A stretch of 20,000 nucleotides of DNA from an uncultured Nitrososphaerota archaeon (GTDB taxonomy: Archaea > Asgardarchaeota > Njordarchaeia > Njordarchaeales > Panguiarchaeaceae), in the NCBI GenBank assembly GCA_964636085.1, contig CAZWPQ010000034.1, forward strand, positions 1,991-21,990, in the 5' to 3' direction. Position 1 is the first letter of the stretch. Each line of letters starts with the position of its first letter. Positions 1 through 20,000 of this stretch are shown piece after piece. A model generated the notes under the pieces. That model worked only from the letters and a program-made list of their open reading frames with translations. It had not been told where the DNA came from and did not search any database. The position numbers and the translations under genes are program-made.

Positions 1-2086
1 TATTATGCTCTTTTGCCAAATCCCTAACTATAGTCTCGTGCTCATAGATGTAATCGATGAGAGCATCAAATTTAGATAGCAATTTCCTTATGATAGTCCA
101 GTTCTCCGGAGATGATACGACGGCGAATAATATTTGCATTACTTTTCTTGAATCCCAAGACTCTTTAGAATTTCTCCAAGACTTCAGGGTATCAAGTATT
201 GTCTTAGCTGAGGTAGGCTTAAGGTAAAGTCTTACCAAAACTCTTCCGATCTCCGTTGCTTGATAATAAATCCTTCGCCCCTTTCTGACCCTTAGGATAA
301 GGCCATTATCCACCAGAAATCTCAATCCGTCCCTTATGTTAGACTCCAGCACGTTAAGTCCATGGATATCCCCCATGCGTCTAGAGTAATTATAAAAGAA
401 TGTATCCTCGAAAAAGTTATAGATTCTTCTCTTATCGATCATGCTTTCCATCACTACTAATGCTAGTATTTGAGAATATACTATTGGCGGTATATGGCCA
501 GAAATCGGTTTAATAGCCTCTGGTTGCCCCAGCACATACTTCTCAATGAATTTATTCATTTCTTTCCTATTTTTGGCGATCAAAATTGCCTCTCCTACTT
601 TATCGTAGTTAGGTCTTCCTGCCCTACCTCCTCGTTGCTTATAATCTGCTGTGGAAAGATCGACAACACCGCCATATTCTGGTTCATAATACTTGTGCTC
701 AATAATAACTCTCCTCGCGGGCAAATTAACTCCTGCGGCTAGGGTAGGTGTAGCGACGAGTACAGCTAAGTGCCCAGCCCTAAATGCTTCCTCGATTATC
801 TGCCTTTCCAATCTTGATAATCCTGCATGGTGAAAGCCTACCCCGTAGGATGTTGTATCAATTAATTCCATTGTGAGTAGCGTTGGTTCTTGTATCTCGT
901 TTTTGAGTCGATCCGCAACGTTCTTACATCCTTGGTAAAGGATATAATACTGGCGGGTTTTCATGAATTCTGCTATTTTTTTCGCTGTTTTTTGAGCTAG
1001 GCTTCTAGACCTACGAAATACCAATAGTTGCCATTTTTGCCCATATTTTTGCATCTCATGTATCATATCCTCTAAAATGTCGAGTATTGCTACCATGAAT
1101 GATGTACTTCTTATGTTTCCATGGGCAGTTCTCACACGCTTAACATAAAATCCGCCAGACCCAATCATACTAGCATATTTTTTTTCTAGGTATTGACATA
1201 AACGTGTTCTTTTGAAGCGTCGAGCGACTAGGCGTCCAATCCCCTCGCTTACAGATATGATCTTATAGTTCTCCCCTAAGAGGTTATCCAGCGGTATTTT
1301 ATTAGTTTTCTCTCTTTTGGCCAGGAATTCATCTAATGTTTTTTCCTTTTTTATGGGTTCTATAAGATCATTGTTAGTTACAAAATATTGCTCCGCTTCA
1401 TTAGGCCGGGGATCATAGATTATCATTTTGGATTCGGGGGGAATATAGATACATTCTAAAAGCTTCACTGGTCTAAAATCACTCACCACGAGCTCTGCAT
1501 TTAGCCACTCGCTGATGTCTTCAGGATTAAGTATTGTTGCTGAGAGTCCAATTATCTGAATACCATGATCCTTCATATAGGTGAGCACTATATCGAGTAA
1601 TGGGCCTCTTTTTGGATCTCCTAACAAGTGGATCTCATCAACAATAGCTAGCTTTACTGATTCTAACCAGCTAGGTTTTTCCCTGAATATGTGATCAGTT
1701 TTTTCATAGGTTAATACGATCAAATCGTGCATTCCAAGAGCTCTCAGCGGGACATCCCTATAATCCCCTGTAGCCACCCCTACATTGATTGGATATCTTA
1801 ATCTGAATGTAGACGCTATTTCTTCAGCAAGGGCTTTGTACGGGGTCAGATAAAATACTTTCCATCCGTCTTTAAGAATCATGTTAACTGCAAGAACCTC
1901 CCCAATTAGTGTTTTTCCACTCCCTGTGGGCGCAACAACGATTAATGACTTGCCTTTCAATCCCTTGCGAATAGCCTCATATTGAAATTTTCGCAGATTT
2001 TTAATGTTTATTCCATATAGTGCATTGATAATATTTTTGTCTACTCCTAACCTGACAAGTATTTCTGTAGGTATATCACTCAACAT
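1..2086 (-). CDS. Ski2/Hel308-type superfamily II DNA/RNA helicase, C-terminus runs off the window
   Basis: Minus-strand reading from ATG at 2086 gives MLSDIPTEILVRLGVDKNII..., Walker A APTGSGKT, motif II VDEIHLLGD, motif III SATILNPEDISEWLNAELVVSDFRPVKL, GVGFHHAGLSRLERQ, and YKQRGGRAGRP. These are the Hel308/Ski2 motifs. The ORF is not in the supplied track, probably because it has no stop inside the window. Confidence 0.8.
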   Translation of the reverse strand, partial: MLSDIPTEILVRLGVDKNIINALYGINIKNLRKFQYEAIRKGLKGKSLIVVAPTGSGKTLIGEVLAVNMILKDGWKVFYLTPYKALAEEIASTFRLRYPINVGVATGDYRDVPLRALGMHDLIVLTYEKTDHIFREKPSWLESVKLAIVDEIHLLGDPKRGPLLDIVLTYMKDHGIQIIGLSATILNPEDISEWLNAELVVSDFRPVKLLECIYIPPESKMIIYDPRPNEAEQYFVTNNDLIEPIKKEKTLDEFLAKREKTNKIPLDNLLGENYKIISVSEGIGRLVARRFKRTRLCQYLEKKYASMIGSGGFYVKRVRTAHGNIRSTSFMVAILDILEDMIHEMQKYGQKWQLLVFRRSRSLAQKTAKKIAEFMKTRQYYILYQGCKNVADRLKNEIQEPTLLTMELIDTTSYGVGFHHAGLSRLERQIIEEAFRAGHLAVLVATPTLAAGVNLPARRVIIEHKYYEPEYGGVVDLSTADYKQRGGRAGRPNYDKVGEAILIAKNRKEMNKFIEKYVLGQPEAIKPISGHIPPIVYSQILALVVMESMIDKRRIYNFFEDTFFYNYSRRMGDIHGLNVLESNIRDGLRFLVDNGLILRVRKGRRIYYQATEIGRVLVRLYLKPTSAKTILDTLKSWRNSKESWDSRKVMQILFAVVSSPENWTIIRKLLSKFDALIDYIYEHETIVRDLAKEHN

Positions 2087-2264
2087 GATTACCAGGGGAA
2101 TTGTGTATTATCAGGACATTATACTAGTATAAGACTCTACCACTATAATAGTTGACTATACTTATTGATTAATTAAATTGTAATCAACGTTCACGACAAT
2201 ATAAAATAATTTAAGCACACTAACCCATATAACCTAATTGATGATGAAGCTGGGTTGATATATT

Positions 2265-5200
2265 GTGTTTTTGAAGGAAGTGGAGCTCGTAGACTTTATG
2301 TGCCACAGGAAATTTATAATGAAGCCGAGCAGACTAACGTTAATATATGGCCGGAATGGTAGCGGGAAGTCAGCAATATTAGAGGCAATACATTTAGCAT
2401 TTGGGGGCTTAGGTAGGGAGAGACAGGAGTTGCTGAGGGATTTTATAAGGTATGGTAAAACGAGGTCGCTAATTAGACTAAAACTCAATAATTCTGTAGC
2501 CCTTCCTGGAATAGGTGTTATTTATCTAGACCCTAAATTGAGGCAGAATTCAGAGGTAATCATCGAACGAATCATTAAGCCAGAGCTAACTATATATAAA
2601 ATCAATGGGCAAAAAGCGACTAAGGAGGAAGTGGTTACTTTACTTTCAAAGGTTAATATTTCTCCAAAGAATCCATTCTTCTTTGTTCCGCAAGAGAAGA
2701 TAACGAAATTATTAGAAATGAAGCCAGAAGAAAGATTAGACGCCATTATGGCGGGGTTAGGTCTATTAGAACTCAAACGAGCACTGTCAAAATTAAAAGA
2801 TGAGATAAGGGGATATGAAAAAAGGAAGAGCGAGATTAAGAGAGAAATCGAAGAGCTTCAAAAAAATCTAGAAGAGCAAAAAAAAGTATTAGCCTCGGTA
2901 GAATCAGCAATTCAAACACTCAAGAATTACTACGTTTACAAGTTGGCTCTGTTGTATAAGAAAAGACTTAGATATCTTGAGGAAGAAGAAGAGCTCCTCA
3001 AGAAAATAGATGAATTGGAGAAGCGGATTAAGGATCATGAAAATTTCATCAATACTCTTCCCGACAAGTTAGCTAATATTAGTAAAGAAATAGGACAAAT
3101 GCAGGAGGAAAAGGCGAAAATTATTGCTGAAGACCCAGAATTAGATAGAAAAATACGGGAATTAGAAGAGCGTGAGAAAGAATTATCATTAAAGATAAAG
3201 AATCTGGATAGTAAGCGTGCAAATATTCTAGAGAAAATGGAGACGATCCTTAAAAAATGGAGGGTCTCCACACTAGAGGACATGGAATCTCTTCTAAAGA
3301 GCAATGAGGAGAGGTTAGTTAAGTTGGAGGAATTGATAGAGAAAGCTGACGAAACAAGACAAATCAGGGAGCTTGAAAAGACGTTAAACATCAAAAAAAA
3401 GGAACTTAAAGAATTGGAGCGGATCCGAGTAGAGTATATAAAAAAGTTCGAAGAAATCATGAATCTGCTCGACCCAAGTGGGAATGTGCTCAAAGTTTAC
3501 AACTTTGTGGTTAAAGAGGGGCTTACGGATGAAGTACAGGGTCCGCTGATATTGGAGATAGCGTTTAATATTGATAACACTAAACTAAAACAATATGCAT
3601 ATGCTATCGAAAGGGCGTTGGATAGAAAAATATTAAAATCGTTCGTGGCGCTGAGCTGGAGAGCTTTACGGAAGCTAATGGTGATTATAAAGAGGCTAGG
3701 TAGGGATCCCCCTACTGTATTTTTCTTTGGACATGGACGAGGTATGTGGAGTGGGGAGCATCAATTTGCGCATTTTCTATATGCGGTACCTGAAGAAATC
3801 TTTGATAAATTTGAGGAGAGGAGGATAAAAATCATGGAAAAACTATCTAGCTTATCTTCATATGAAAGATCGGCCTTTATATGTTTATTGCCACAACTTA
3901 TAGATGCCCCCCAAGCTACAAAAGCGATAATAGAATATTTTGCAGGGAGTACAGCTCTTGTGAGTAATTTGGATGCTGGAATCAGTCTTATGAGGAATAT
4001 AGAGTTGGATCGAATTGTTACTATCGATGGTGAAGTAGTTCAGCGATACCCGGTGGGAGAAGGAGCAATTTATTCTATGTTGCCTAAAATAGAGAATCCA
4101 ACTGAAAATCCTGAAGAATCATTGATTTATAGGGCGCGAGAATTTAAGATGCAGGAATTTAGGAGAAAGAAGAGAGATCTTGATGATGCGATAAGCAACC
4201 TTAGAGATGAAATTAGAAACCTAGAAAGGCAAATAAGTATTCTCGAAAATAATCTCCCAACGAAAATAAGAAATCTATGGCTAGAGCGTTCTAAATTAAA
4301 AGATGCGATATCGGAACTACGCCATGATATCCTGTACTTAGTAACTGCATACAAAGAAAGAAATCGTTTGCCTGAGCAGATTAGGAAGTTGGAATCTCAA
4401 CTGGATAAAATTGAGAAGCAGATCGTCGACTTGTGTAAGAAAAAAGATCTTTATGCCAAAAGACTAGTTGAGATAGACAGTAAAATAGGACAATTTGAGA
4501 AATATAAAGAAACACTAATTAGTCAGAAAGGAAAAATAATGGCCGAACTTGAAAAAATGAGGGAAGATGTTACGATTCTTAAAAGCAAAGTTGAGACTAT
4601 TAGGAGATTTAAAAATAGTATTGAAGGCGAAATAGATAGTCTTAAAAGAGAAATACGGGCATTGACGTTAGTAGTATGGTCGACATTGAGTAGTAACAGA
4701 GAACATAATGTCAATGACGTGTTGGAAAAAGAGATAGTCGAGCCTGCAGCACTAATTATAAAGGAAATGAGTGAAAGTGAGTTAGAGGAAATAATCAAAA
4801 ACTTCGATGAGAAGGGTATTGCGGATCTCCGCTTTGATATAATTTCGAGAGAAGAAAAAATACGAGCAATTGAACAAATTAGGAGTAAATTAGAGAAACA
4901 TAAGGCCGAACTTAATACTATCGAAAGAAGTATAGAATCTGCTAGGAGATTAGCAGAGAAGACATTAAATAGGCTGTTAGCTAGGTTAAGGGAGAAAATA
5001 CGTGAGTTATCGGAGAATTACAAATACGTCCTATCAAAAATAGGCGCAAAGGGCGACGTACAGCTAGTTGGTGATAAAATCGATCAAATGTGTCTTAAAA
5101 TAACCATAGATCTTCATAGGAACAAGCCTGTCGATATAAGCGAGGGAGCTTTCTCGTCAGGCGAAAAAACATTGGCTATTTTTGCCTTTATTATTGCCTT

Positions 5201-5489
5201 ATTTTTAACGTCGCCAACCCCTATATTGATACTAGACGAATTTGATGTATATTTGGACGATTTAATGGTAGCATTGGCGGCAAAAATATTAAAGGAAGTG
5301 CTTTTAGATCTAAAATATGTTCAGTGCATATTGACAACAACGCATAGGGTAGAGCTTATGCGCGTCGCCGACGTCATAATTAACCTTGTGTACGATGAAT
5401 CCGCCAAAAGTACAACTAGTTATGTTGTCCCGAAGAGGAGAATCGAAAAAATTGTTTCACGAGGATCTATCGCATCCATACAACCCTAA
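2265..5489 (+). CDS. SMC-family ATPase with SMC5/6-like N- and C-terminal motifs
   Basis: 1074 aa, GTG start. N-terminus ELVDFMCHRKF...LTLIYGRNGSGKSAILEAIHLAFGG (Walker A), long heptad/charged coiled coils, a central hinge-like segment, and C-terminus FSSGEKTLAIFAF...ILILDEFDVYLDD (signature and Walker B). Confidence 0.9.
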   Translation: MFLKEVELVDFMCHRKFIMKPSRLTLIYGRNGSGKSAILEAIHLAFGGLGRERQELLRDFIRYGKTRSLIRLKLNNSVALPGIGVIYLDPKLRQNSEVIIERIIKPELTIYKINGQKATKEEVVTLLSKVNISPKNPFFFVPQEKITKLLEMKPEERLDAIMAGLGLLELKRALSKLKDEIRGYEKRKSEIKREIEELQKNLEEQKKVLASVESAIQTLKNYYVYKLALLYKKRLRYLEEEEELLKKIDELEKRIKDHENFINTLPDKLANISKEIGQMQEEKAKIIAEDPELDRKIRELEEREKELSLKIKNLDSKRANILEKMETILKKWRVSTLEDMESLLKSNEERLVKLEELIEKADETRQIRELEKTLNIKKKELKELERIRVEYIKKFEEIMNLLDPSGNVLKVYNFVVKEGLTDEVQGPLILEIAFNIDNTKLKQYAYAIERALDRKILKSFVALSWRALRKLMVIIKRLGRDPPTVFFFGHGRGMWSGEHQFAHFLYAVPEEIFDKFEERRIKIMEKLSSLSSYERSAFICLLPQLIDAPQATKAIIEYFAGSTALVSNLDAGISLMRNIELDRIVTIDGEVVQRYPVGEGAIYSMLPKIENPTENPEESLIYRAREFKMQEFRRKKRDLDDAISNLRDEIRNLERQISILENNLPTKIRNLWLERSKLKDAISELRHDILYLVTAYKERNRLPEQIRKLESQLDKIEKQIVDLCKKKDLYAKRLVEIDSKIGQFEKYKETLISQKGKIMAELEKMREDVTILKSKVETIRRFKNSIEGEIDSLKREIRALTLVVWSTLSSNREHNVNDVLEKEIVEPAALIIKEMSESELEEIIKNFDEKGIADLRFDIISREEKIRAIEQIRSKLEKHKAELNTIERSIESARRLAEKTLNRLLARLREKIRELSENYKYVLSKIGAKGDVQLVGDKIDQMCLKITIDLHRNKPVDISEGAFSSGEKTLAIFAFIIALFLTSPTPILILDEFDVYLDDLMVALAAKILKEVLLDLKYVQCILTTTHRVELMRVADVIINLVYDESAKSTTSYVVPKRRIEKIVSRGSIASIQP

Positions 5490-5494
5490 TTGAG

Positions 5495-6166
5495 GTGGTT
5501 GTCGTGTATGAAAAAGGTGAATACTATAAGACTATGCGGGGAATTGCCGAATTGATACGCCTTTTGAATTCATATATCTCAAGAAAGAGGGGTCATATTA
5601 ATACAAGAGAAATATCAAACACATTGGAATCTCTGGTCAGAAAAGATGAGACACCTGACGTATTGATAAATAATGTCGACATGGGGATAAAATTTTTCAA
5701 TACGCTCTGTAAATATTTTCCCGTGCGACTATCCGTCATACAGAAATTTATTTCTAGTCTAGAGAATATAACATACTTTCCATCGGTAATAGCGAAAATT
5801 GTTCTGAATCTCTCATTATCTGGCAAAATTAGAATGTATGGTGAGGTTAAAGTCCGGGGCATTACACTAGGGATCATAAAGAAAGGTATTAGAAGGCTTA
5901 GGGAAGTATGTGTTTCTTGCTCTAAACTAGAGCCCAGTTTTTATCCGCGACAAAGCATTGGAAAATTTGTTAGACTGTGTAACTTAGTTAATGATATAAA
6001 GACAGCGGTTGTGGAAAGGGATATAAAATCCTTAATTTATGGTGCCTCTCATCAGGAGCCTTTTCAAGTAGATCCATACATATTGGTTCATTCTCGAAAA
6101 GAAATTGTTTTAAAAATTCTGGCCGTACTGAAATATATGGGCGAAAAGGAGCTGGCGGGGGAATAA
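5495..6166 (+). CDS. Uncharacterised protein between SMC and Kite-like genes; candidate kleisin/SMC-complex subunit
   Basis: 223 aa, starts 5 nt after the SMC stop, GTG start. Position matches that of ScpA in smc-scpA-scpB operons. Sequence support for a kleisin is weak. Confidence 0.4.
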   Translation: MVVVYEKGEYYKTMRGIAELIRLLNSYISRKRGHINTREISNTLESLVRKDETPDVLINNVDMGIKFFNTLCKYFPVRLSVIQKFISSLENITYFPSVIAKIVLNLSLSGKIRMYGEVKVRGITLGIIKKGIRRLREVCVSCSKLEPSFYPRQSIGKFVRLCNLVNDIKTAVVERDIKSLIYGASHQEPFQVDPYILVHSRKEIVLKILAVLKYMGEKELAGE

Positions 6167-6169
6167 AAG

Positions 6170-6730
6170 TTGGATAGTTCTAGATATGATAAGAATGATG
6201 TCATAAGGAGAATAGCCGCATTACTACTATTGGAGACACAAAGACACCATTATGTGTCAAGATCTAAAGTAGAATCCATTGCGAGGAAGTACAATATTTC
6301 TTTTGAGTCGATTAAAGAGGAACTTGTCAAGAGATTTCACAGTGTAGGTATTGTGTTGAGGGAGGTGGAGGTAGAGAGAAGGAACAAGCGAAAGCGCATG
6401 CTTATATGTGTACTAGACCCAGAATTAGACCTAGATGCTAGTTTTATTGATCCAATAATGGCCGCAGTTTTGGCGATTATTTATGTTAGGACCAAGAGGG
6501 GGGAGATATTGATAGATGAGCTATATGATGAGATATCAAAATTGTTCGGTTCTGAAGAAATAAAGGCTAAAATATCGGAAATCCTAAGGGTGTTAGAAAA
6601 AAAGAAGTTGATCAGTATAGACACTAAGGAGAGAATTATTAGATTGAAACCATTGGCAATAGCTATGATGCCTCCTAAAGATAAAATCGATAAGCTCCTA
6701 TTGGATGTGTTAACGAGGCGTGAGGGGTAG
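6170..6730 (+). CDS. Tandem winged-helix protein, Kite superfamily (ScpB / Nse3-MAGE-like)
   Basis: 186 aa. First WH-like part IRRIAALLLLETQRHHYVSRSKVESIARKY...ELVKRFHSVGIVLREVEVERRNKRKRMLICVL, second part DPIMAAVLAIIYVRTKRGEILIDELYDEISKLF, which resembles the MAGE/Nse3 'LL..VL.LIFM.GN.I.E...W..L..LG' pattern. Located directly after the SMC and candidate kleisin genes. Confidence 0.5.
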   Translation: MDSSRYDKNDVIRRIAALLLLETQRHHYVSRSKVESIARKYNISFESIKEELVKRFHSVGIVLREVEVERRNKRKRMLICVLDPELDLDASFIDPIMAAVLAIIYVRTKRGEILIDELYDEISKLFGSEEIKAKISEILRVLEKKKLISIDTKERIIRLKPLAIAMMPPKDKIDKLLLDVLTRREG

Positions 6731-8039
6731 AAGCTTGGAAATATCCAAAATAAGGCCGCCCAGTTGGTATCCACTACAGCAGGTCAAGGGGGAGCTAAGT
6801 TTAGGAGAATTGCTTGAGATTGCAAAAAAAAGAATTGATTTCCTAGTGAGTTGGAAGGCTGGAGAGATCCCAGATGATAGTTTAGATTATCTAAAAAATA
6901 ATGCCCTCGGAAATCTTGCGTTGTGTATCGCGTCGGCAGTTACGGATGATGCATATTTTCGTAATTGGTTGCTAGAGACCGAAGCAGATTTTTTTGCTAC
7001 GATGTTTAAAAAAGCATCTCCTTCTGCTAAGTTGGGTATATTGAATAAGGTTTTTGGCGGAATAATCGTAGGTCTGTCAGGAGTATCCGAATACCTAAAT
7101 GTGTCGAGTGATTTTATTCTAAATGAGCTTGCTACGATTCGTAGGGTGAAGAAGGAGTCATTTAATCAACTCGTTGGGACATTCGAGGGCTTCTCAGTGG
7201 CTGCAGCAAGATTTGAGAAGGCATATAAGATAATAAGAAAGGAGAGTGGGCTTCTACTAGGGGGCTGGGTTGTAGCGCCCTTAATAGAGTTCTTTAGGAT
7301 TGTAAAAGCATGTTTTCAGAGTATAATGGAGCAGAGAATAAGAGAAATTAGAAAAAGAATTATGGGGGGTAATAAAAAGGAGGTATACGAAGGATATGCC
7401 CAAGAAGTTATAGCATATTGGAGGGGTAAAAGAGCTAAGTTCGTAACGGCAAAATCTTATGTAAGCAGTGGTAGTAAGCTTTGGCAACGTCCGCATTTAT
7501 TCCCGCCTTGCTCGAGAATATTATATGATAAATTTATGGCGACAGGATATATACCACATGGTGAGAGAGTACAATTAGCATTATTTTTGAAGGGCTTAGG
7601 TATGCCGCTTGAAGAGCAATTAAAGTTTTGGTACAAAGCTGTTGACAATATGGGTATTAGTTGGGATAATTATCTGAGGAAGGGGGGGTATTATATTCGT
7701 CATATATACGGTTTGGAAGGATCTAGGAAAGACTATAGTCCTCCTAAATGTGAAACAATAATATCAAGATACTTCTGCCCCTTTAGTAAATTAGATAGTT
7801 CTAGTCTGAGAGAAGTGTTGAAAAAGATTAATCCAAAAATAACTTCTGGTGCCTTGGACAGAATAATTGATGCGTGTATTATACATGAATTTACACGAGC
7901 GTGTACAATGTTTTTGGAGTCTATTACTGGTAAAACGCTAAGAAGGGGGTTTATAAGTCATCCCCTCCAATTCGTTAGGATCTTAAGTATCTATGAAAAA
8001 AAGAAGGGTGGTGGAAATAAACGGGCGAAAGTACCCTAG
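6720..8039 (+). CDS. priL: DNA primase large subunit PriL / PRIM2-like (4Fe-4S)
   Basis: C-terminal half: LFPPCSRILYDKFMATGYIPHGERVQLALFLKGLGMPLEEQLKFWYKAV...YYIRHIYGLEGSRKDYSPPKCETIISRYFCPFSKLD...ACTMFLES...ISHPLQF. This carries the PriL cysteine arrangement. GTG start overlaps the end of the previous gene. Confidence 0.82.
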   Translation: MRGRSLEISKIRPPSWYPLQQVKGELSLGELLEIAKKRIDFLVSWKAGEIPDDSLDYLKNNALGNLALCIASAVTDDAYFRNWLLETEADFFATMFKKASPSAKLGILNKVFGGIIVGLSGVSEYLNVSSDFILNELATIRRVKKESFNQLVGTFEGFSVAAARFEKAYKIIRKESGLLLGGWVVAPLIEFFRIVKACFQSIMEQRIREIRKRIMGGNKKEVYEGYAQEVIAYWRGKRAKFVTAKSYVSSGSKLWQRPHLFPPCSRILYDKFMATGYIPHGERVQLALFLKGLGMPLEEQLKFWYKAVDNMGISWDNYLRKGGYYIRHIYGLEGSRKDYSPPKCETIISRYFCPFSKLDSSSLREVLKKINPKITSGALDRIIDACIIHEFTRACTMFLESITGKTLRRGFISHPLQFVRILSIYEKKKGGGNKRAKVP

Positions 8040-8781
8040 AATGTTTTCTAGGGTATATCTGAGCGGATTTGATCCAGATAGACTAAAACAAAAAACTGTG
8101 GCTGTATTCGGAGTCGGGGGAATAGGAGCTTTAGTCGCCGAAATGCTCGCTAGGATGGGCGTTGGAAAAATAATAATAGTTGATAAGGATATAGTTGAGG
8201 AAGAAAATTTGAATAGGTTGGGGTATTATGTGTGTGATCTAGGGAAACCGAAGGTTGAGGTTCTAAAAAGGAGACTTGATGAGTTAAATAACATCCGTGG
8301 AAAAAATTTTCCATTGAAGGTAGAGGCGTATTATGTTAATATATTCGATTTTCCTGAGATTGGGGATATCGTGAAAAATAGTGATTGCATTATAGTGGCT
8401 TTTGACGATATAGATGCTAGGCTTGAGGTAAACTCTGCGGCTCTAAAGTATAATAAAGTGTTGATAGATGGAGGGGCGTCCACAAATGGTTTAAGGGGTC
8501 GGGTAACTGTTGTAAAGCCTTATGTGTGGCCATGTCTAGGATGTCTATATTCGCCTGATGTATTGGTAAAGGAGGGTGAAGTAGACACGCTAACATGTAA
8601 TGTTAGTCTGCCAACAACCATGGCGGTAATAGCTAGCATTCAGGTGGATCAATGTTTAAGATATCTCCTCAATAAGGGTGGATTAAGCCCGTTGACCTTG
8701 ATATCTTTTGAGGATGGTATTATTATTACTAAATTTAATAGTCTGTCCAGAAGGGGCGACTGTCCATACTGCTCTAGGTGA
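7993..8781 (+). CDS. E1-like ubiquitin-like-protein activating enzyme, UBA5-like (ThiF/MoeB superfamily)
   Basis: Rossmann motif VAVFGVGGIGALVAEMLARMGVGKIIIVDKDIVEEENLNRLGY, GKPKVEVLKRRL, zinc-type CLGC...CPYC pairs, and LTCNVSLPTTMAVIASIQVDQCLRYLLNKG, which aligns with the UBA5 catalytic-Cys region [28 protein letters not shown]. Overlaps priL by 47 nt. Confidence 0.85.
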   Translation: MKKRRVVEINGRKYPRMFSRVYLSGFDPDRLKQKTVAVFGVGGIGALVAEMLARMGVGKIIIVDKDIVEEENLNRLGYYVCDLGKPKVEVLKRRLDELNNIRGKNFPLKVEAYYVNIFDFPEIGDIVKNSDCIIVAFDDIDARLEVNSAALKYNKVLIDGGASTNGLRGRVTVVKPYVWPCLGCLYSPDVLVKEGEVDTLTCNVSLPTTMAVIASIQVDQCLRYLLNKGGLSPLTLISFEDGIIITKFNSLSRRGDCPYCSR

Positions 8782-8787
8782 ACAAAT

Positions 8788-9174
8788 TTGGGAAAAGACG
8801 CCAAGGAGGCTAAGAGCTTGGTGGATAGTAAAATTGTGCTAAAGATCGATGCAATAGAGACGCCGCGAGGGTTGGTTCCTACGATATCGAGCATAGAGAG
8901 CCTTGTTAATGCAATTAACAAAATTCTAAGTGAACTCTTTAACAGAATAGAACGCATAATGACCCTACTTGAAAATAACTCTAAGTGTATAAAAGACATA
9001 ACGTTAGTTCTAAATGGCTTGAAGTTGAGGATGGAATTCATAGAGAATCTTCTATCTGAAATAAAAGTTTATATTAGCGAACCTAGGAGGGAAGATAGTG
9101 TAAGGGATGTTGGTCAGCGTAAAAAAGATATTAAAAAGGAATTATTAGATATGATTGGTTCTAATGCCCCATGA
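8788..9174 (+). CDS. Hypothetical coiled-coil protein, last gene of the SMC/PriL/E1 block
   Basis: 128 aa, TTG start 6 nt after the E1 stop, central heptad-like segment (SLVNAINKILSELFNRIERIMTLLENNSKCIKDITLVLNGLKLRMEFIENLLSEI). Confidence 0.5.
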   Translation: MGKDAKEAKSLVDSKIVLKIDAIETPRGLVPTISSIESLVNAINKILSELFNRIERIMTLLENNSKCIKDITLVLNGLKLRMEFIENLLSEIKVYISEPRREDSVRDVGQRKKDIKKELLDMIGSNAP

Positions 9175-12275: not shown

Positions 12276-12378
12276 GCCGGGGTTGCCGAGCTGGTACGGC
12301 GTCGGCCTGCTAGACGAGCGGCCATTGTAGAAAGCCGATGGCGTTTTCGCCTCGCGGGTTCGAGTCCCGCCCCCGGCA
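12276..12378 (+). tRNA. tRNA-Ser(GCU) with a 20-nt canonical-position intron (12313-12332)
   Basis: Acceptor GCCGGGG/CCCCGGC, D stem GCCG/CGGC, anticodon stem TCGGC/GCCGA, spliced loop CUGCUAA, variable arm GGCG-TTTT-CGCC, T arm GCGGG-TTCGAGT-CCCGC. A BHB-like 4-bp helix CUGC/GUAG flanked by 3-nt bulges UAG and AAA places the intron at 37/38. Confidence 0.88.
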
Positions 12379-12438: not shown

Positions 12439-12458
12439 ACGGACTTGCCCCAGAGTTT

Positions 12459-12533
12459 GGGCCGGTAGCTCAGCCTGGGTAGAGCGTCCGGCTCTTAACC
12501 GGACGGTCGCGGGTTCAAATCCCGCCCGGCCCA
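12459..12533 (+). tRNA. tRNA-Lys(CUU)
   Basis: Acceptor GGGCCGG/CCGGCCC plus A73, anticodon stem TCCGG/CCGGA with loop CTCTTAA (anticodon 12494-12496), T arm GCGGG-TTCAAAT-CCCGC. Confidence 0.95.
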
Positions 12534-12620
12534 TTTGTGTAGTTATTTTCCTTTACTCGTGTAGGTAACGCTCATATATATCTTTTTATTAAGGTCTCAT
12601 TAAAGTTAGTTTGAACTTAG

Positions 12621-14525: not shown

Positions 14526-15404
14526 TTGAACTATAGACACGCTATTAGTTGGTGTGGCATCATGGTTATTAGGGCCGTAGCCTTATTTGATGCCTATGGT
14601 AATGAAATATTCTATAACACTTATGCCAATTTTACCCCGAACTTTCCTCTCCTTAATAGGATATTGCTAGGTATGAAGGAACACTTCATAAAGGAGGTTG
14701 ATTCGCTGGAAATGGGCCAGTATAGAATTTCGCTTATGATAACATCTAACTTTATGTTGTCGATATTGGCTGATAGGGTAAATAGTGCGGAGGAACTGGA
14801 AAAAGTATTAAGAAGACTCATGGAGGATGCAGTGGATATTTTTGGTGACGCCACTAAAGAAAGTGTGTCTAATGAGAGTGTTGAAAAATTTGAACAATGC
14901 GTGGAAGATGCAATAAAGATGATTCCAGTTAAGTGTACCTTGACTGGGTACGGGGGGGTAGGTAAGACGACAATAGTTAAGCTTGTTGCGAAGGGAATCA
15001 CAGTTAGTAAGCATATTCCTACGATACTAGCCGACGTGGAGGAGCTTCATATAGAGGGCATTGAACCGTTTAAAGTAACCCTATTCACTGTTGCTGGCCA
15101 GCCAGAATACTGGCGAACTTGGATGGTTACCACAGAAGGGTCGGACTTTGTGGTTCTCGTCACCGATTCGAGTGAAGAGGACGTTATTAGGCTTCAGAAG
15201 GAAATATTGCCATATCTGATGAAGATAACTCCGTATTCAAGATTTACGTTGATAGCTAATAAACAGGATCTTCCTGATAGATTGCCCCCTTCAGCGATAG
15301 AGGAGTTGACGGGATTTCCATCGTATCCACTTGTGGCTATATCTCCTGACGCCAAGGAAAGATTTATTGAAATTCTTAATTCGATGATAAGGGAGTTGCC
15401 TTAG
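14526..15404 (+). CDS. Small GTPase (MglA/Arf/Rag-like) with N-terminal longin/roadblock-like domain; likely start at ATG 14562
   Basis: N-terminal MVIRAVALFDAYGNEIFYNTY...LLGMKEHF, P-loop GYGGVGKTT, G3 region LFTVAGQPEYW, G4 IANKQDLPD. Confidence 0.8.
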   Translation: MNYRHAISWCGIMVIRAVALFDAYGNEIFYNTYANFTPNFPLLNRILLGMKEHFIKEVDSLEMGQYRISLMITSNFMLSILADRVNSAEELEKVLRRLMEDAVDIFGDATKESVSNESVEKFEQCVEDAIKMIPVKCTLTGYGGVGKTTIVKLVAKGITVSKHIPTILADVEELHIEGIEPFKVTLFTVAGQPEYWRTWMVTTEGSDFVVLVTDSSEEDVIRLQKEILPYLMKITPYSRFTLIANKQDLPDRLPPSAIEELTGFPSYPLVAISPDAKERFIEILNSMIRELP

Positions 15405-15427: not shown

Positions 15428-16156
15428 TTGTGTTTAGCTTTTTTCATTAAGGCTACGTCGTGTAGAGTTATGGTGATATCGGAGAGAATTAGGCAGATAG
15501 TCTCAGAGTTAATAAAATTGGGTGCACATGCTGTATATGTCTCTGATAAAGATGGTCTAGAGATATGTTATATTGGGGATACTAACCTTAAAAGTTTCCT
15601 CCAATTGTTACCGTCTGTGAGAACATGGATACAATATCAGCTAGATATGAACTTCTTAATGTCTCTTCAAGCAAGATATAATCTAAACATAGCGTGCGAT
15701 GATATACCTATAATTCAGCTAAAATTCAAGATGGGGGCAATGAATAGCATATTAATGAGTTACCATGGATTATCGATAGGCTGCATTTATCCAAATAGCG
15801 TGGATATTGATCCAAGAAGTCTTTTAAAGATACTTAGAGAAATCTTTGATACTATGGCAGGTAGTGCTGGTGCGAGGGAGGATATAATCGATAAAGTAAG
15901 GCATTATATTTTAGAAGCCCGAAAAAACATAAGTGCTGGCGATAGGGAAGGACTTGTTGAAAACTTGGAGCACATAAAAACATATTTACTGGGATCCTCA
16001 AATCCCAATGTTAACAGGTATATTACACACATAGAGAGACTTCTAGATGTGCTAAGGGTTGCAGATTTGGGTGGAGAGGTAGAAAGAAAGGCTAAACGAA
16101 GTCTTTTATTGTTATTTAGGAATATAATAAAATCGCTGGAAACGGCAAAATCTTAG
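15428..16156 (+). CDS. Roadblock/LC7-like protein, likely partner of the upstream GTPase; likely start at ATG 15470
   Basis: MVISERIRQIVSELIKLGAHAVYVSDKDGLEICYIGD... matches the roadblock pattern 'GA..v.v.d.dGl.i...g'. Helical C-terminal extension of about 90 aa. Confidence 0.55.
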   Translation: MCLAFFIKATSCRVMVISERIRQIVSELIKLGAHAVYVSDKDGLEICYIGDTNLKSFLQLLPSVRTWIQYQLDMNFLMSLQARYNLNIACDDIPIIQLKFKMGAMNSILMSYHGLSIGCIYPNSVDIDPRSLLKILREIFDTMAGSAGAREDIIDKVRHYILEARKNISAGDREGLVENLEHIKTYLLGSSNPNVNRYITHIERLLDVLRVADLGGEVERKAKRSLLLLFRNIIKSLETAKS

Positions 16157-16970: not shown

Positions 16971-17078
16971 CTAAACCACCATGAAGCATACTCATTAAAC
17001 GTTAGATAATAAAAAAATATTAAAATTTTTTGATACTATAGAAATGGCAAAAAATGAGGTATCATGTAAAATTATACT

Positions 17079-17151
17079 GGGCCGGTGGCCTAGTGGCTAT
17101 GGCGTCCCGCTTACGACGGGGAGGTCGGCGGTTCAAATCCGCCCCGGCCCA
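17079..17151 (+). tRNA. tRNA-Val(UAC)
   Basis: Acceptor GGGCCGG/CCGGCCC plus A73, anticodon stem TCCCG/CGGGG with loop CTTACGA (anticodon 17112-17114), T arm GGCGG-TTCAAAT-CCGCC. Confidence 0.95.
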
Positions 17152-17175
17152 CTTTTGCCTAGGTGTACAATACTT

Positions 17176-17249
17176 GCGCCGGTGGTCTAGAGGTAGGATG
17201 CCAGCCTCCCAAGCTGGTGACGCGGGTTCGAATCCCGCCCGGCGCACCA
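17176..17249 (+). tRNA. tRNA-Gly(CCC), 3' CCA encoded
   Basis: Acceptor GCGCCGG/CCGGCGC plus A73 at 17246, CCA at 17247-17249, anticodon stem CCAGC/GCTGG with loop CTCCCAA (anticodon 17208-17210), T arm GCGGG-TTCGAAT-CCCGC. Confidence 0.95.
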
Positions 17250-17296
17250 AAAACATATAGAAGTTCATTGGTTCATAATTTCCTATTGGCAAAATC

Positions 17297-17304
17297 TTTT
17301 TATA
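17297..17304 (+). promoter_or_regulatory. Possible TATA box for the permuted 5S rRNA gene
   Basis: TTTTTATA preceded by an A-rich BRE-like AAAATC, about 37 nt upstream of the terminal stem; implied start near 17327-17332. Confidence 0.35.
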
Positions 17305-17340
17305 GGCATTAGGATATAGTATTATTTTGGACATAGCAAT

Positions 17341-17495
17341 GGCACGGGGGCCGAAAGCTAAGCCGCGCCACGCCGATCCGAGTAGTCTGGTGGGAGACCC
17401 CAGGCGAAAGGACGGTGCTGTCCGCCCTTTGGGGTGGACGGCCATAGGGCGCGGGCTACGCCCGAACCCATTCCGAACTCGGAAACTCCCGTGCC
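17341..17495 (+). rRNA. 5S ribosomal RNA, circularly permuted gene order
   Basis: Normally-3' segment first (17358-17428: CUAAGCCGCGCCACGCCGAUCCGAGUAGUCUGGUGGGAGACCCCAGGCGAAAGGACGGUGCUGUCCGCCCU), then the normally-5' segment (17431-17484: GGGGUGGACGGCCAUAGGGCGCGGGCUACGCCCGAACCCAUUCCGAACUCGGAA). Helices I, II, III, IV and V can all be paired by hand. Outer stem GGCACGGGGG/CUCCCGUGCC joins the new ends. Confidence 0.9.
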
Positions 17496-17639
17496 ATTTT
17501 TATATCGTGAGGTTATGATTGTCTTTTTAGGGCGTCTCGCTTTTGTAAGAATATAACCCAGTGGAAATAGATGATATCTAATAGATGTTGATCTATCCTG
17601 TATGTTATCAACTTAGCCTTTTTTAATAAAATCTTCGTC

Positions 17640-18551
17640 TTAGCGAAGAGATTGTAGGTACGATTGGTTAGATTTTATGGATACAATTGCCTTCAGTATC
17701 TCTATTTTTAGTGTTCTTATATTGGGTCTTATTAGCGATCTTTCTTGATCAATTTTCTCTATTGCAGACATGATGCTCTTTGTGTCGGTTCTTAGCATTC
17801 TTTTAATTTTTTTTAGGATTTGAGCTCCATTCTTTTCGTTGGTAGGTAATTTAATTTTTAATCCATCTCTTAATTGCATAATTAGGCCTCGAAATAGGAG
17901 AGATTTGCATGATTTTATACTCGCTATATCGCTCCTATAATAAAAGATAAAGTTGGCACTATTTTTATGACGGATAAAGAGCCGTATTGTTGTGACTATT
18001 ATCTCGAATTTTGGTGTCTTGATTATTCCAAGTATGAATTCGCCGTTCTCAAGTGCATCAAGGATTCCACAAGAAGATACATAATTATAATTTTTTCTAA
18101 GTTCTAGAATCCTTCGCTTTATGCTTTCTATTCGCTTTTCAACATTGTTTAGGAGAAGTATTGTTCTATCATTGGGGGCCTTATCAATGAGAATAGTTCC
18201 TCTTTGGTCTTCTGAATGGGCAATTTGATGGTTGTCGCAATAGCTTAGTCTAGCTATTACAAATGCATTGGCAATATTTTCATAGACATTAATTATAATC
18301 TCATATAGCCTAGATAGTAATTCATCTAATTTCCAGTAGATGGCCAGATGATTGCTTCTAAAGAATTTTAAATTGTAGTATATTGAGTCCATTTCTGATA
18401 TAAGATATTCCATGTAGAAGACTGTATCTATAGTGCTTCTATAAATGTCGGCTAAAACCATGTCTCTGCGCCTTGGCCATTTTTTATACTGTCGGTACTT
18501 TTTATTACATGGAGAGAATATAAAGGTACAAATTACTATGATGTTATCCAC
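17640..18551 (-). CDS. Hypothetical protein, likely true start at the internal Met (about 18461)
   Basis: 303-aa ORF, helical and basic C-terminus; the first 30 residues look like non-coding extension upstream of MVLADIYRSTIDTVFYMEYLISEMDSIYYNLKF. Confidence 0.5.
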   Translation of the reverse strand: MDNIIVICTFIFSPCNKKYRQYKKWPRRRDMVLADIYRSTIDTVFYMEYLISEMDSIYYNLKFFRSNHLAIYWKLDELLSRLYEIIINVYENIANAFVIARLSYCDNHQIAHSEDQRGTILIDKAPNDRTILLLNNVEKRIESIKRRILELRKNYNYVSSCGILDALENGEFILGIIKTPKFEIIVTTIRLFIRHKNSANFIFYYRSDIASIKSCKSLLFRGLIMQLRDGLKIKLPTNEKNGAQILKKIKRMLRTDTKSIMSAIEKIDQERSLIRPNIRTLKIEILKAIVSIKSNQSYLQSLR

Positions 18552-18662: not shown

Positions 18663-19451
18663 ATGAGTCAAAAAAACGAAAAAACGAAGATTGAGTCAAC
18701 ATCTAAAGGAGATGAATATAGTCTGATGGTATATGAAAAACCACCTCTGATTCGTCTATGGTCACATAGAATTAGAAAGTTCCTTTACAAGCTTATTAGG
18801 TATATTGATGAGACGCTAGTAATTCCCGATGATATCCAACATGATGTAGTGAAGACAACAATAGATTGCGTTCTCTACATAATGGATGCTAAGAGTAAAC
18901 TAAGAGTTCGTTTATATGATTTATCCTTAGCCTGTTTTTGGCTTAAACTCCAAGAATATGGAATAACAGAGATTTCATTACTCAAATTGATAAAGGTAGC
19001 AAGGAAAACATTGAATCACAGAATAACTCATGGAAAAGTGCTTAGAGTGGTATCGTATCTTAGGGAGAATGCGTTCAAATCAAATGACTCATTAGGTGAG
19101 ATAAAAAGAAATATCGTGATGATTTTAGAGAGAATGTTCAGTGATAAAAAATTTATCAAAAAAAAGTTTGGTGTTAGTTCCTCAATTTCCTACAACATAA
19201 TAGACCTGAAGCTAAAAATAATTGACAGCCTCTCAGAATGTCTATCGAAGATACCCGCCGATTATCTCATAGGGCCACCAAGAAAAGTGTTGGCCGCCGC
19301 ATTACTATATGCGTTTCTCCGAAAGTATCGTGAGAAGGGAGGACCCAAAATCTCGGCCAGTGATATCGAACGATATTCAGGTGTATGCAAATTTACCATC
19401 CTTAGGAAATACAAGAGACTCCAAAGGTATGCGGACTTACATATATTTTGA
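18663..19451 (+). CDS. Divergent TFIIB-like / cyclin-fold protein lacking a zinc ribbon
   Basis: Two repeat-like regions: VRLYDLSLACFWLKLQEYGITEISLLKLIKVA and LIGPPRKVLAAALLYAFLRKYREKGGPKISASDIERYSGVCKFTILRKYKRL. The latter matches the TFB cyclin-repeat pattern 'P..laAAalY.a.......t..eia..agv...ti...yk.l'. Confidence 0.5.
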   Translation: MSQKNEKTKIESTSKGDEYSLMVYEKPPLIRLWSHRIRKFLYKLIRYIDETLVIPDDIQHDVVKTTIDCVLYIMDAKSKLRVRLYDLSLACFWLKLQEYGITEISLLKLIKVARKTLNHRITHGKVLRVVSYLRENAFKSNDSLGEIKRNIVMILERMFSDKKFIKKKFGVSSSISYNIIDLKLKIIDSLSECLSKIPADYLIGPPRKVLAAALLYAFLRKYREKGGPKISASDIERYSGVCKFTILRKYKRLQRYADLHIF

Positions 19452-20000
19452 TGATAATGATCAATTCTTCAGTATCATCTTTATGTCTTCACACACATAG
19501 AGTGACCGTTATGAGGAAATCATATGTGTATTCTTTCAAACCATTCGTATATGAGGTACATCGAGGGGTATATAAATATAAGGTTGATGAAAACTTTAAG
19601 GACGCTATTAATGCATTATTTCCTCAAGTTGTTAAATCTTTATCAAAGTATGAGAACAGCCGAATATTGAGGTTCAGCATATTATTAAAAGAAGCGACGG
19701 AGATTATAGAAGGGAGTGTTGTTCTTAAGAGATTATTAAACCCTATAGTTACAAAGTTTACGCATGATGTGTACGAGCTTATATCTATGTTTCTCCTGTT
19801 TAAGTTATTCAGATTGGAGAAGATATTTCCATTAATGTGTGATGGAATGGTAAATGAAATTTATATAGACGGTCCAGGAAAAAAGGTATATATAGATCAT
19901 GCTCTTTTTGGAAGACTTGAAACTAATATAGAAGTAACAACTAGGGATATAGAATCATTAATTTTTTTCATTAAAATCTACGGGGATTCATTACTATTTG
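19451..20000 (+). CDS. N-terminal part of a VirB11/GspE/ArlI-type secretion ATPase (right edge truncated)
   Basis: Open reading frame to the window end, start candidates 19451, 19457, 19502 or 19511. Contains MCDGMVNEIYIDGPGKKVYIDHALFGRLETNIEVTTRDIESLIFFIKIYGDSLL, the 'ENI.IdGpG.pvyv.H..yG.l.TNi' region that precedes the ATPase core. Not listed in the ORF track because it is open at the edge. Confidence 0.75.
   Translation, partial: MIMINSSVSSLCLHTHRVTVMRKSYVYSFKPFVYEVHRGVYKYKVDENFKDAINALFPQVVKSLSKYENSRILRFSILLKEATEIIEGSVVLKRLLNPIVTKFTHDVYELISMFLLFKLFRLEKIFPLMCDGMVNEIYIDGPGKKVYIDHALFGRLETNIEVTTRDIESLIFFIKIYGDSLLF

Follow-up and report, generated by a model that had tools for sequence, protein, structure and literature searches.

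The eukaryotic SMC5/6 holocomplex comprises the Smc5-Smc6 pair, the kleisin Nse4, the KITE proteins Nse1 and Nse3, the SUMO ligase Nse2, and Nse5/6, and archaeal operons related to it are reportedly also treated in a 2021 paper by Yoshinaga and Inagaki. TACK and Asgard archaea carry, besides an operon related to condensin and cohesin, one related to SMC5/6, which encodes an SMC protein, an Nse4-like kleisin and an Nse1/3-like KITE subunit (van Hooff, Raas, Tromer & Eme, bioRxiv 10.1101/2024.01.07.573240). For the UFM1 system, one paper reports homologues of UBA5 from a diversity of archaea and bacteria but confines UFC1 and UFM1 to eukaryotes. A 2026 paper describes Ufm1 homologues in nine Asgard clades, and in the literature searched UFC1 and Asgard archaea are named together only alongside the claim that UFC1 and UFM1 are exclusively eukaryotic. 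Here we describe a string of six genes with relatives in both systems, found in a 20,000-nucleotide stretch of DNA (the window) from an uncultured archaeon of the order Njordarchaeales (GenBank assembly GCA_964636085.1, contig CAZWPQ010000034.1, positions 1,991 to 21,990 of the forward strand).

With moderate confidence we read this string as a conserved property of Njordarchaeales that consists of three co-expressed and separable modules: an SMC5/6-related complex (an SMC ATPase, a protein X in the kleisin slot and a KITE protein Y), the large primase subunit PriL, and an E1 that would activate a ubiquitin-like protein (Ubl), together with a coiled-coil (CC) protein. The SMC5/6-like trio as such has already been published. 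The literature searched does not contain the combination, kept across the order, of this trio with PriL and a UBA5-family E1-CC pair, and the text of van Hooff et al. (bioRxiv 10.1101/2024.01.07.573240) mentions neither a primase nor ThiF.

The six open reading frames (ORFs) lie on the plus strand at positions 2265-9174, exactly where the original prediction had placed them (Table 1), and follow each other at spacings of 5 nucleotides (nt), 3 nt, an 11-nt overlap, a 47-nt overlap and 6 nt. They are given as maximal ORFs, and the real starts may lie slightly downstream. The overlap of PriL and E1 is real, because the conserved E1 residues P15 and R20 are encoded upstream of the PriL stop. From the tight spacing and the single upstream intergenic region we infer that the string is one transcript and that the three modules are co-expressed, which may have a regulatory meaning. 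The intergenic region is presumed to hold the promoter, with the putative element TATAAAATAA at about 2200-2209. Across the block the GC content is about 35-40% and the purine skew is positive.

Table 1. Genes of the string and adjoining features in the window.
Feature	Position	Strand	Basis
SMC5/6-related SMC ATPase, 1074 aa	2265..5489	+	Pfam SMC_N, Walker B, head tree
Protein X, 223 aa, candidate kleisin	5495..6166	+	Position, size, helical pattern only
Protein Y, 186 aa, KITE (tandem winged helix)	6170..6730	+	AlphaFold2 model, Foldseek
PriL, DNA primase large (regulatory, 4Fe-4S) subunit, 439 aa	6720..8039	+	Pfam, invariant Cys
UBA5-family E1-like adenylating enzyme, 262 aa, group A	7993..8781	+	Pfam ThiF, UBA5 alignment
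CC protein, 128 aa, coiled coil	8788..9174	+	Alignment, generic coiled-coil Pfam matches
AT-rich divergent intergenic region, 178 bp	2087..2264	.	Sole sizeable non-coding gap before the string
Hel308/Ski2-like DNA helicase	1..2086	-	Pfam DEAD 1.2e-29, Helicase_C 6.6e-13
Convergent membrane protein, 213 aa	9161..9802	-	Helical N-terminal domain and about three transmembrane helices

Related loci, referred to below by handles such as L022, were collected in part by scanning one genome for each GTDB species with two family-specific peptide patterns drawn from the SMC alignment, which was used in place of the Y-family alignment, the latter being too variable to seed a genome scan. Synteny was scored by a script that called ORFs and then searched them with family profiles. 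The species scan yielded 12 loci, most of them labelled Njordarchaeota or Njordarchaeum and the others carrying generic archaeal labels. The full set of six genes is present in seven of the 12, four are cut by a contig end and are consistent with the same order, and one (L022) lacks E1; loci from assemblies and metagenomes agree with this result. Every Njordarchaeales locus that is long enough, L022 excepted, thus keeps the order SMC-X-Y-PriL-E1-CC, and does so down to an SMC identity of 28% and at PriL identities of 35-53%. Lesser departures are an inverted yet still adjacent CC gene (L003, L004, L015) and a BacA gene inserted behind SMC (L011, L012). Since the order recurs in all long-enough related loci with one exception and one insertion, the arrangement is not due to chance, and the synteny in relatives on which the original prediction had staked itself holds.

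The surroundings of the block change from clade to clade. Upstream there are genes for Hel308, a CDP-alcohol phosphatidyltransferase or a TyrRS-type protein, and downstream a membrane protein with EF-2, a Ubl-Sec61beta gene with TIM, or a convergent ORF of 361-387 aa, while the six-gene block itself stays intact. Because the order is kept at low identity and between differing flanks, its conservation goes beyond recent common ancestry.

The three modules (SMC-X-Y, PriL and E1-CC) can also exist apart. L022 consists of SMC-X-Y-PriL without E1, and in L043, L044 and L050 an E1-CC pair has neither PriL nor SMC within 6 kb upstream. Outside Njordarchaeales, SMC5/6-like operons stop after the KITE gene and give way to unrelated genes, with neither PriL nor E1. 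The Njordarchaeales trio resembles these archaeal SMC5/6-related operons in joining an SMC of eukaryotic SMC5/6 affinity to a small kleisin-slot protein and an Nse1/3-type KITE, and differs from them in running on unbroken into PriL, E1 and CC and in having a kleisin-slot protein without detectable similarity to Nse4 or ScpA. Two such operons were seen in other archaea: at L025:8001-11307 a short-armed SMC of 642 aa precedes proteins of 275 and 184 aa, and at L028:6985-12590 an AAA protein is followed by an SMC of 1144 aa and proteins of 205 and 173 aa. The small subunits of both operons have no Pfam matches.

PriL is recognised by Pfam DNA_primase_lrg at 2.4e-42. Its cysteines 264, 344, 353 and 395 do not vary among 23 family members and are spaced much as in PRIM2, as expected of 4Fe-4S ligands. 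Its closest solved relatives are the C-terminal domains of human and yeast PRIM2, at about 1e-20. The protein had been predicted to be PRIM2-like, and it is indeed a real Fe-S PriL with PRIM2 as its best solved relative; the further claim that it stands closer to PRIM2 than to archaeal homologues is weak, since no archaeal PriL chain occurs among the solved-structure matches and the comparison is unbalanced. PriL would serve as the Fe-S regulatory subunit of an archaeo-eukaryotic primase, and no priS gene is present in the genome stretches of 20-23 kb that were covered.

Neither an E2 nor an E3 is encoded in the gene string, and tblastn and jackhmmer found no homologue of a Ubl, an E2 or a JAB peptidase in the window, as had been noted for Ubl and E2 from the outset. 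The E1 would most likely adenylate the C-terminal glycine of a Ubl and then form a thioester with it, with the cognate Ubl presumably encoded outside the window and, in sister clades, directly after CC. The gene that follows CC in the deeper Njordarchaeales clades encodes a conserved domain of about 84 residues ending ...QISSA[DE]MLG, whose predicted strand/helix pattern and exposed C-terminal glycine are compatible with a beta-grasp fold. In L017 and L051 this Ubl candidate stops right at the glycine and a Sec61beta gene follows about 20 nt on (in L017 the two lie at 17041-17352 and at about 17374-17583). In other loci it is fused in frame with Sec61beta, namely at L005:8914-9426(-), where Pfam Sec61_beta scores 5.8e-6, at L011:13902-14495(-) and likewise in L012, and at L048:9206-9784(+). 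In L017, L048 and L051 the candidate reads in the same direction as the string; in L042 and in L023/L052 it has a gene for a JAB-like peptidase nearby (Pfam Prok-JAB, 6e-5 to 0.04).

Eukaryotic UFMylation is linked to the Sec61 translocon, and the Ubl-Sec61beta fusions offer a handle on the ancestral role of a UFMylation-type pathway. In their form these fusions resemble those of ubiquitin with ribosomal proteins.

The most probable alternative takes the operon as a functional unit, in which E1 and CC, with a Ubl encoded elsewhere, would conjugate that Ubl onto the SMC5/6-like complex, onto the primase or onto factors of replication and repair close by. The string would then be an archaeal forerunner of Nse2/Nse1-type SMC5/6 modification or of the DNA-damage roles of UFM1. 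In keeping with this, PriL and E1 overlap by 47 nt, their adjacency persists order-wide at the low PriL and SMC identities given above, the block outlasts changes in both flanks, E1 retains its catalytic cysteine, the Ubl belongs to the same co-directional string in three loci, and a Hel308-like repair helicase is the divergent neighbour. Against it, L043, L044 and L050 have an E1-CC pair on its own, and a neighbour-joining (NJ) tree makes their E1s the sister group of all E1s linked to PriL. E1 is missing from L022, BacA interrupts the string in L011 and L012, the SMC5/6-like operons of other archaea adjoin neither PriL nor E1, and the string has no E2 or E3. Moreover, the most constant partner of the Ubl, by fusion or adjacency, is Sec61beta, a pointer to the translocon and away from DNA. 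We therefore consider such conjugation onto the DNA machinery unlikely: it is not the simplest explanation, because the modules are not always together and the Ubl goes with Sec61beta, and to name the SMC or the primase as a target of E1 is speculation from gene order. The original prediction had proposed a ubiquitin-like modification of just this machinery; the proposal found no direct support, the modules being separable, and the neighbours of E1 in sister clades (Ubl with Sec61beta, or JAB) argue as much against a DNA role as for one.

When metagenomes were scanned from the E1 alignment, a second group of E1s (group B) came to light, 36-40% identical to the window E1, which belongs to the PriL-linked group A. 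Human UBA5 is about as close to one group as to the other, and the NJ tree resolves the groups as two clades. A group-A locus (L048) and a group-B locus (L057) lie on one 64-kb contig, Ga0190314_1000031, so that one genome holds both. The group-B operons, found on metagenome contigs (L053:6929-9722, L056, L057:6881-9652, L058, L060), encode a JAB-like peptidase of 340-400 aa, the E1, a 175-aa protein and a Ubl that ends ...KDLLG plus 0-4 residues. Searched against the Protein Data Bank (PDB), the profile of the 175-aa protein matched UFC1 chains only (best 4.2e-7, with the catalytic cysteine aligned), and this UFC1-like E2 adjoins group-B E1s only, not those of group A. The group-B operon appears to be a complete Asgard cassette for proto-UFMylation.

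Two further features of these cassettes were observed. A variant at L047:1-3366 encodes, in order, a Ubl, an E2-like protein of 198 aa, a JAB protein of 389 aa, the E1 and an E2-like protein of 180 aa, with two UFC1-like paralogues thus placed on either side of the JAB-E1 pair. In group-B JAB proteins (for example L057:6881-7978) the JAMM domain is followed by what appears by eye to be a candidate internal ubiquitin-like segment and then by a Lys/Glu-rich coiled coil.

By extension, the group-A E1, CC as adaptor and the Gly-ending Ubl might form a second proto-UFMylation branch that works without an E2 and is dedicated to the SMC5/6-like complex, the primase and Hel308. We hold this to be rather improbable; if true, it would mean that ubiquitin-like control of SMC5/6 and replication predates eukaryotes.

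The SMC protein carries the Walker A motif GRNGSGKS, the signature FSSGEKT and the Walker B motif LDEFDVYLD, and Pfam SMC_N covers its residues 3-1047 at 1.9e-28, which places it in the SMC superfamily. Between long coiled coils there is a central non-coiled, hinge-like region with the family-invariant residues G426, P427, T586 and G589. Eleven high-scoring relatives were found, and the 12 proteins of the family, like the 12 species loci, all stem from metagenome-assembled genomes of Njordarchaeota type; two of the relatives are named by source, one from a "Candidatus Njordarchaeota archaeon" and one a partial protein from an "Archaeoglobales archaeon" metagenome-assembled genome.

Several observations suggest that the protein is of the SMC5/6 type rather than canonical, as originally predicted. 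Among the hits of one search, eukaryotic SMC6-like proteins have DEFDVF[ML]D or DEFDIFMD at the Walker B site, a 640-aa archaeal family has DE[FY]D[IV]HMD, SMC3 and the canonical SMCs of bacteria and archaea have DE[IV]DA.LD, and the window SMC has DEFDVYLD. In a NJ tree of concatenated head halves (37 sequences from that search, 328 columns, without SMC1/2/4/5 or Rad50 references), the Njordarchaeales SMC, the eukaryotic SMC6-like proteins and the 640-aa family separate from canonical SMC and SMC3 with bootstrap values of 82-98. By precomputed Pfam assignments, SMC_hinge is missing from the Njordarchaeales family and from most eukaryotic SMC6-like relatives, and is present in most canonical SMC and SMC3 proteins. 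The affinity of the window SMC agrees with the published TACK/Asgard SMC5/6-related operon. The ATPase would presumably homodimerise through its hinge, X in the kleisin slot would bridge the two heads and Y would sit on X; by analogy with other SMC complexes, the assembly would entrap or extrude DNA with the use of ATP.

Protein X, proposed originally as a candidate kleisin, always sits between SMC and the KITE gene and measures 206-245 aa in Njordarchaeales loci; in two other archaeal SMC5/6-like families (L025-27 and L028) the same slot is filled by a protein of 205-275 aa. No homology that would bear out the proposal was detected. Profiles of 8 and 27 X sequences matched nothing among PDB sequences, Pfam scans of every member gave nothing relevant, and hhalign found no link to the kleisin-slot proteins of the two other SMC5/6-like operons. 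HMMER, run over all 1.84 billion representatives, returned 25 proteins, all within the family. An AlphaFold2 model built from a 6-sequence alignment was poor and unreliable, with a predicted local distance difference test score (pLDDT) of 51, and had no Foldseek matches. Many members share the C-terminal pattern S..E...R..AL..L...I...G..V.R, a predicted helix-plus-hairpin that may resemble the C-terminal winged helix of kleisins.

Protein Y was predicted by AlphaFold2 from a 9-sequence alignment with a pLDDT of 81.4 and a predicted template modelling score of 0.71 as two winged-helix domains. Its best Foldseek matches in the PDB are all KITE subunits and include JetB (8dk1_E, 5.3e-5), 8as8_C, MAGE-G1/Nse1 (5hvq, 8.5e-5) and Nse1-Nse3-Nse4 (7dg2, 9e-5), with MukE (3rpu) among the best; the KITE matches listed span 5e-5 to 5e-3, and ScpB (1t6s) comes only at rank 27. 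The fold match of the model thus makes Y a KITE subunit of Nse1/Nse3/JetB/MukE-like kind, an assignment by fold and not a phylogenetic placement with Nse1/3 as opposed to ScpB. This fits the original description of the protein as Kite/Nse3-like.

These data also bear on the reading of SMC-X-Y as a fast-evolving but ordinary archaeal Smc-ScpA-ScpB condensin, with no SMC5/6-type paralogue involved. The SMC-kleisin-KITE order does equal smc-scpA-scpB, four of the 14 Y members have weak Pfam ScpB matches (best 0.011), the SMC heads match SMC3 and Pyrococcus SMC in the PDB at 1e-23 to 1e-19 and SMC6 at 2e-11, and no canonical SMC was met in the stretches of 20-23 kb covered in each Njordarchaeales genome. 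Such a condensin would, however, be at odds with the SMC6-type Walker B, with the split of the head tree, and with the archaeal SMC equivalog SMC_prok_A of NCBIfam, which gives the window SMC 128 bits against a cutoff of 729. Nor is there a Pfam SMC_hinge match in the SMC. The Y model lies nearer to JetB, Nse1/3 and MukE than to ScpB, and X and Y stay below the Pfam thresholds for ScpA and ScpB; the only other weak match in the Y family is to MksE, in one of the 14 members. More widely, no part of SMC-X-Y reaches the Pfam threshold for ScpA, ScpB, MukF or JetA. We accordingly regard an ordinary condensin as quite improbable. What the trio does share with Smc-ScpAB, MukBEF and Wadjet (JetABCD) is the architecture of SMC, kleisin slot and KITE, with JetB and MukE as structural matches of Y; it departs from them in its non-canonical Walker B and tree position, in its housekeeping context and in the absence of JetD.

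Compared with eukaryotic SMC5/6, the Njordarchaeales string is alike in its SMC6-type Walker B, in an accessory subunit of the KITE rather than the HAWK type, and in a nearby enzyme of Ubl modification. It is unlike in having a single SMC, presumed to homodimerise, and a single KITE of 186 aa without a RING, and there is no ORF resembling Nse2/SP-RING, Nse5 or Nse6 in the string within the window. The modifying enzyme also differs, being a UBA5-family E1 tied to the SMC by gene order only, whereas the eukaryotic one is an E3 on the SMC arm.

The E1 consists of an adenylation domain only (Pfam ThiF, 3.1e-43) with an invariant GVGGIG nucleotide-binding motif. That it resembles UBA5, as predicted at the start, is supported by PDB scores of 1.4e-26 (97 bits) for UBA5 against about 1e-14 (58 bits) for ThiF/MoeB, by an identity of 30-35% to the adenylation domain of human UBA5, and by the alignment of its tCnvSLPTTM segment with the catalytic cysteine context of UBA5 (C-x-x-SLPTTM). 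C202 and the CxxC pairs 181/184 and 257/260, which provide the zinc cysteines, are invariant in 11 orthologues. The chain ends at residue 262, two residues past the second CxxC, and thus lacks the C-terminal tail with which UBA5 binds UFM1 and UFC1. The exact E1 sequence was also found in ENA and Logan assemblies.

In its catalytic cysteine context, its zinc cysteines and its degree of identity to UBA5 the E1 is close to the UFM1 system, and in the same genomes a UFC1-like E2 and a Gly-ending Ubl come after the paralogous E1. Unlike in that system, the window E1 has no C-terminal tail and is followed by a coiled-coil protein in place of an E2, and the candidate Ubl of group A has no significant sequence match to UFM1. 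The prokaryotic E1-Ubl-JAB systems (SAMP/UbaA) provide a second comparison, with a small stand-alone E1, a Gly-ending Ubl, a JAMM/JAB protein in some relatives and possibly E2-independent conjugation as common points; the window E1 differs in being of the UBA5 type (UbaA model 79 bits against a cutoff of 450) and in lying in a string of replication and chromosome genes.

CC follows E1 directly in every group-A locus, even in those without PriL or SMC. It has a conserved N-terminal motif, I-E-T-P-R-G-x-V-P-T, with a long coiled coil behind it, and I23, T25, P26, G28, P31 and N44 are invariant. Its Pfam matches are generic coiled-coil ones and indicate no specific family, so that it is the coiled-coil protein it was first taken for. 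A faint MoaD match raised CC as a candidate Ubl, which was dropped in view of the missing conserved C-terminal glycine and the exclusively coiled-coil matches. In some lineages (L023:16578-17453, L043:7054-7788) CC is extended at its C-terminus by a further domain of about 110-160 aa, of no assigned family, which brings the total to 244-291 aa.

If the E1 were instead an adenylyltransferase of the ThiF/MoeB/TcdA type, engaged in sulfur-carrier or tRNA chemistry and next to PriL by chance, then the bare adenylation domain without the tail of UBA5 and a window without Ubl or E2 would be expected, and the top NCBIfam names are indeed ThiF and MoeB. Yet none of these models reaches its cutoff (TIGR02356, 105.8 of 275 bits; PRK08644, 92 of 159; MoeB, 65 of 377), UBA5 outscores ThiF in the PDB, and the UBA5-type CxxSLPTTM is invariant. 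Furthermore, genes for a JAB protease and for a Ubl candidate with a terminal glycine come after orthologues, and the sister paralogue stands beside a UFC1-like E2. Sulfur transfer is therefore very unlikely, and the UBA5-type catalytic site, the Ubl/JAB neighbours in relatives and the UFC1-like partner of the paralogue argue for an enzyme of protein modification that probably activates a Ubl.

That the block might be a defence island, with a Wadjet/Lamassu-like SMC system and a Bil/CBASS-like E1, is suggested by JetB as top Foldseek match of Y and by PADLOC matches to LmuB, mad3 and a partial JetC for SMC and to 'E1-E2' for E1, but is scarcely credible, as these matches span the generic ATPase head or E1 fold only, X, Y and CC have none, genes for JetD/Toprim or a nuclease are missing, the surroundings are of the housekeeping kind (EF-2, ribosomal proteins, aIF2, TIM) with a chromosomal position conserved order-wide, and the block contains the essential PriL. 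The PADLOC scan as a whole returned no specific defence system.

Returning to the three-module string, a number of points weigh against it. The SMC tree is limited, being a NJ tree of head domains drawn from the hits of one search, and X is a candidate kleisin by virtue of its slot position. Profile searches of the Ubl candidate against PDB and Pfam gave no significant match to a known Ubl family, the only trace being a faint Pfam Ufm1 match (0.078) for a group-B Ubl member, and no Ubl is encoded within 10 kb in the loci of the window's own clade.

Whatever the role of the string, Njordarchaeales possess an SMC5/6-type complex with a very divergent kleisin-slot protein, and two UBA5-family E1 paralogues, one of them in an operon of JAB, E1, a UFC1-like protein and a Ubl. 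Should the co-expression reflect function, the string would provide a testable prokaryotic model for Ubl modification coupled to SMC5/6 and replication before eukaryotes. The components as such are expected in an Asgard archaeon; it is their arrangement that makes the timing of Ubl control of DNA and translocon machinery testable.

Among the neighbours, the helicase gene is truncated by the window edge, diverges from the string and belongs to its context, outside the operon. A helicase with Helicase_dom4_arc and HHH_5 domains is likewise upstream and divergent in L003, L004, L006 and L010, and lends the surroundings a flavour of replication and repair in the window's clade only. On the other side, the convergent membrane-protein gene overlaps the end of the CC ORF by 14 nt, and its homologues adjoin CC in L003, L004, L006, L013, L014, L030, L032-L034 and L049, which makes it a conserved neighbour of CC in the window's clade only. 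A Pfam match of this protein to CDK5RAP3 (0.019) was not repeated in the homologues and was set aside as noise.

Further along the window, three ORFs of 184-303 aa at 17640-18551(-), 18663-19451 and 19448-20000 have no Pfam match at 0.001. A 292-aa protein (14526-15404) has a C-terminal GTPase domain of the Arf/Ras family (Pfam Arf, 3.5e-14) behind an N-terminal region without a family match, and is followed by a 242-aa protein without a match (15428-16156), as is typical of an Asgard small-GTPase locus; the Arf-family GTPase fits the Asgard origin of the window. A tRNA of 103 nt at 12276-12378, found by Rfam (48.7 bits) and not by ARAGORN, adjoins a tRNA-Lys at 12458-12534 and is probably an intron-containing archaeal tRNA.

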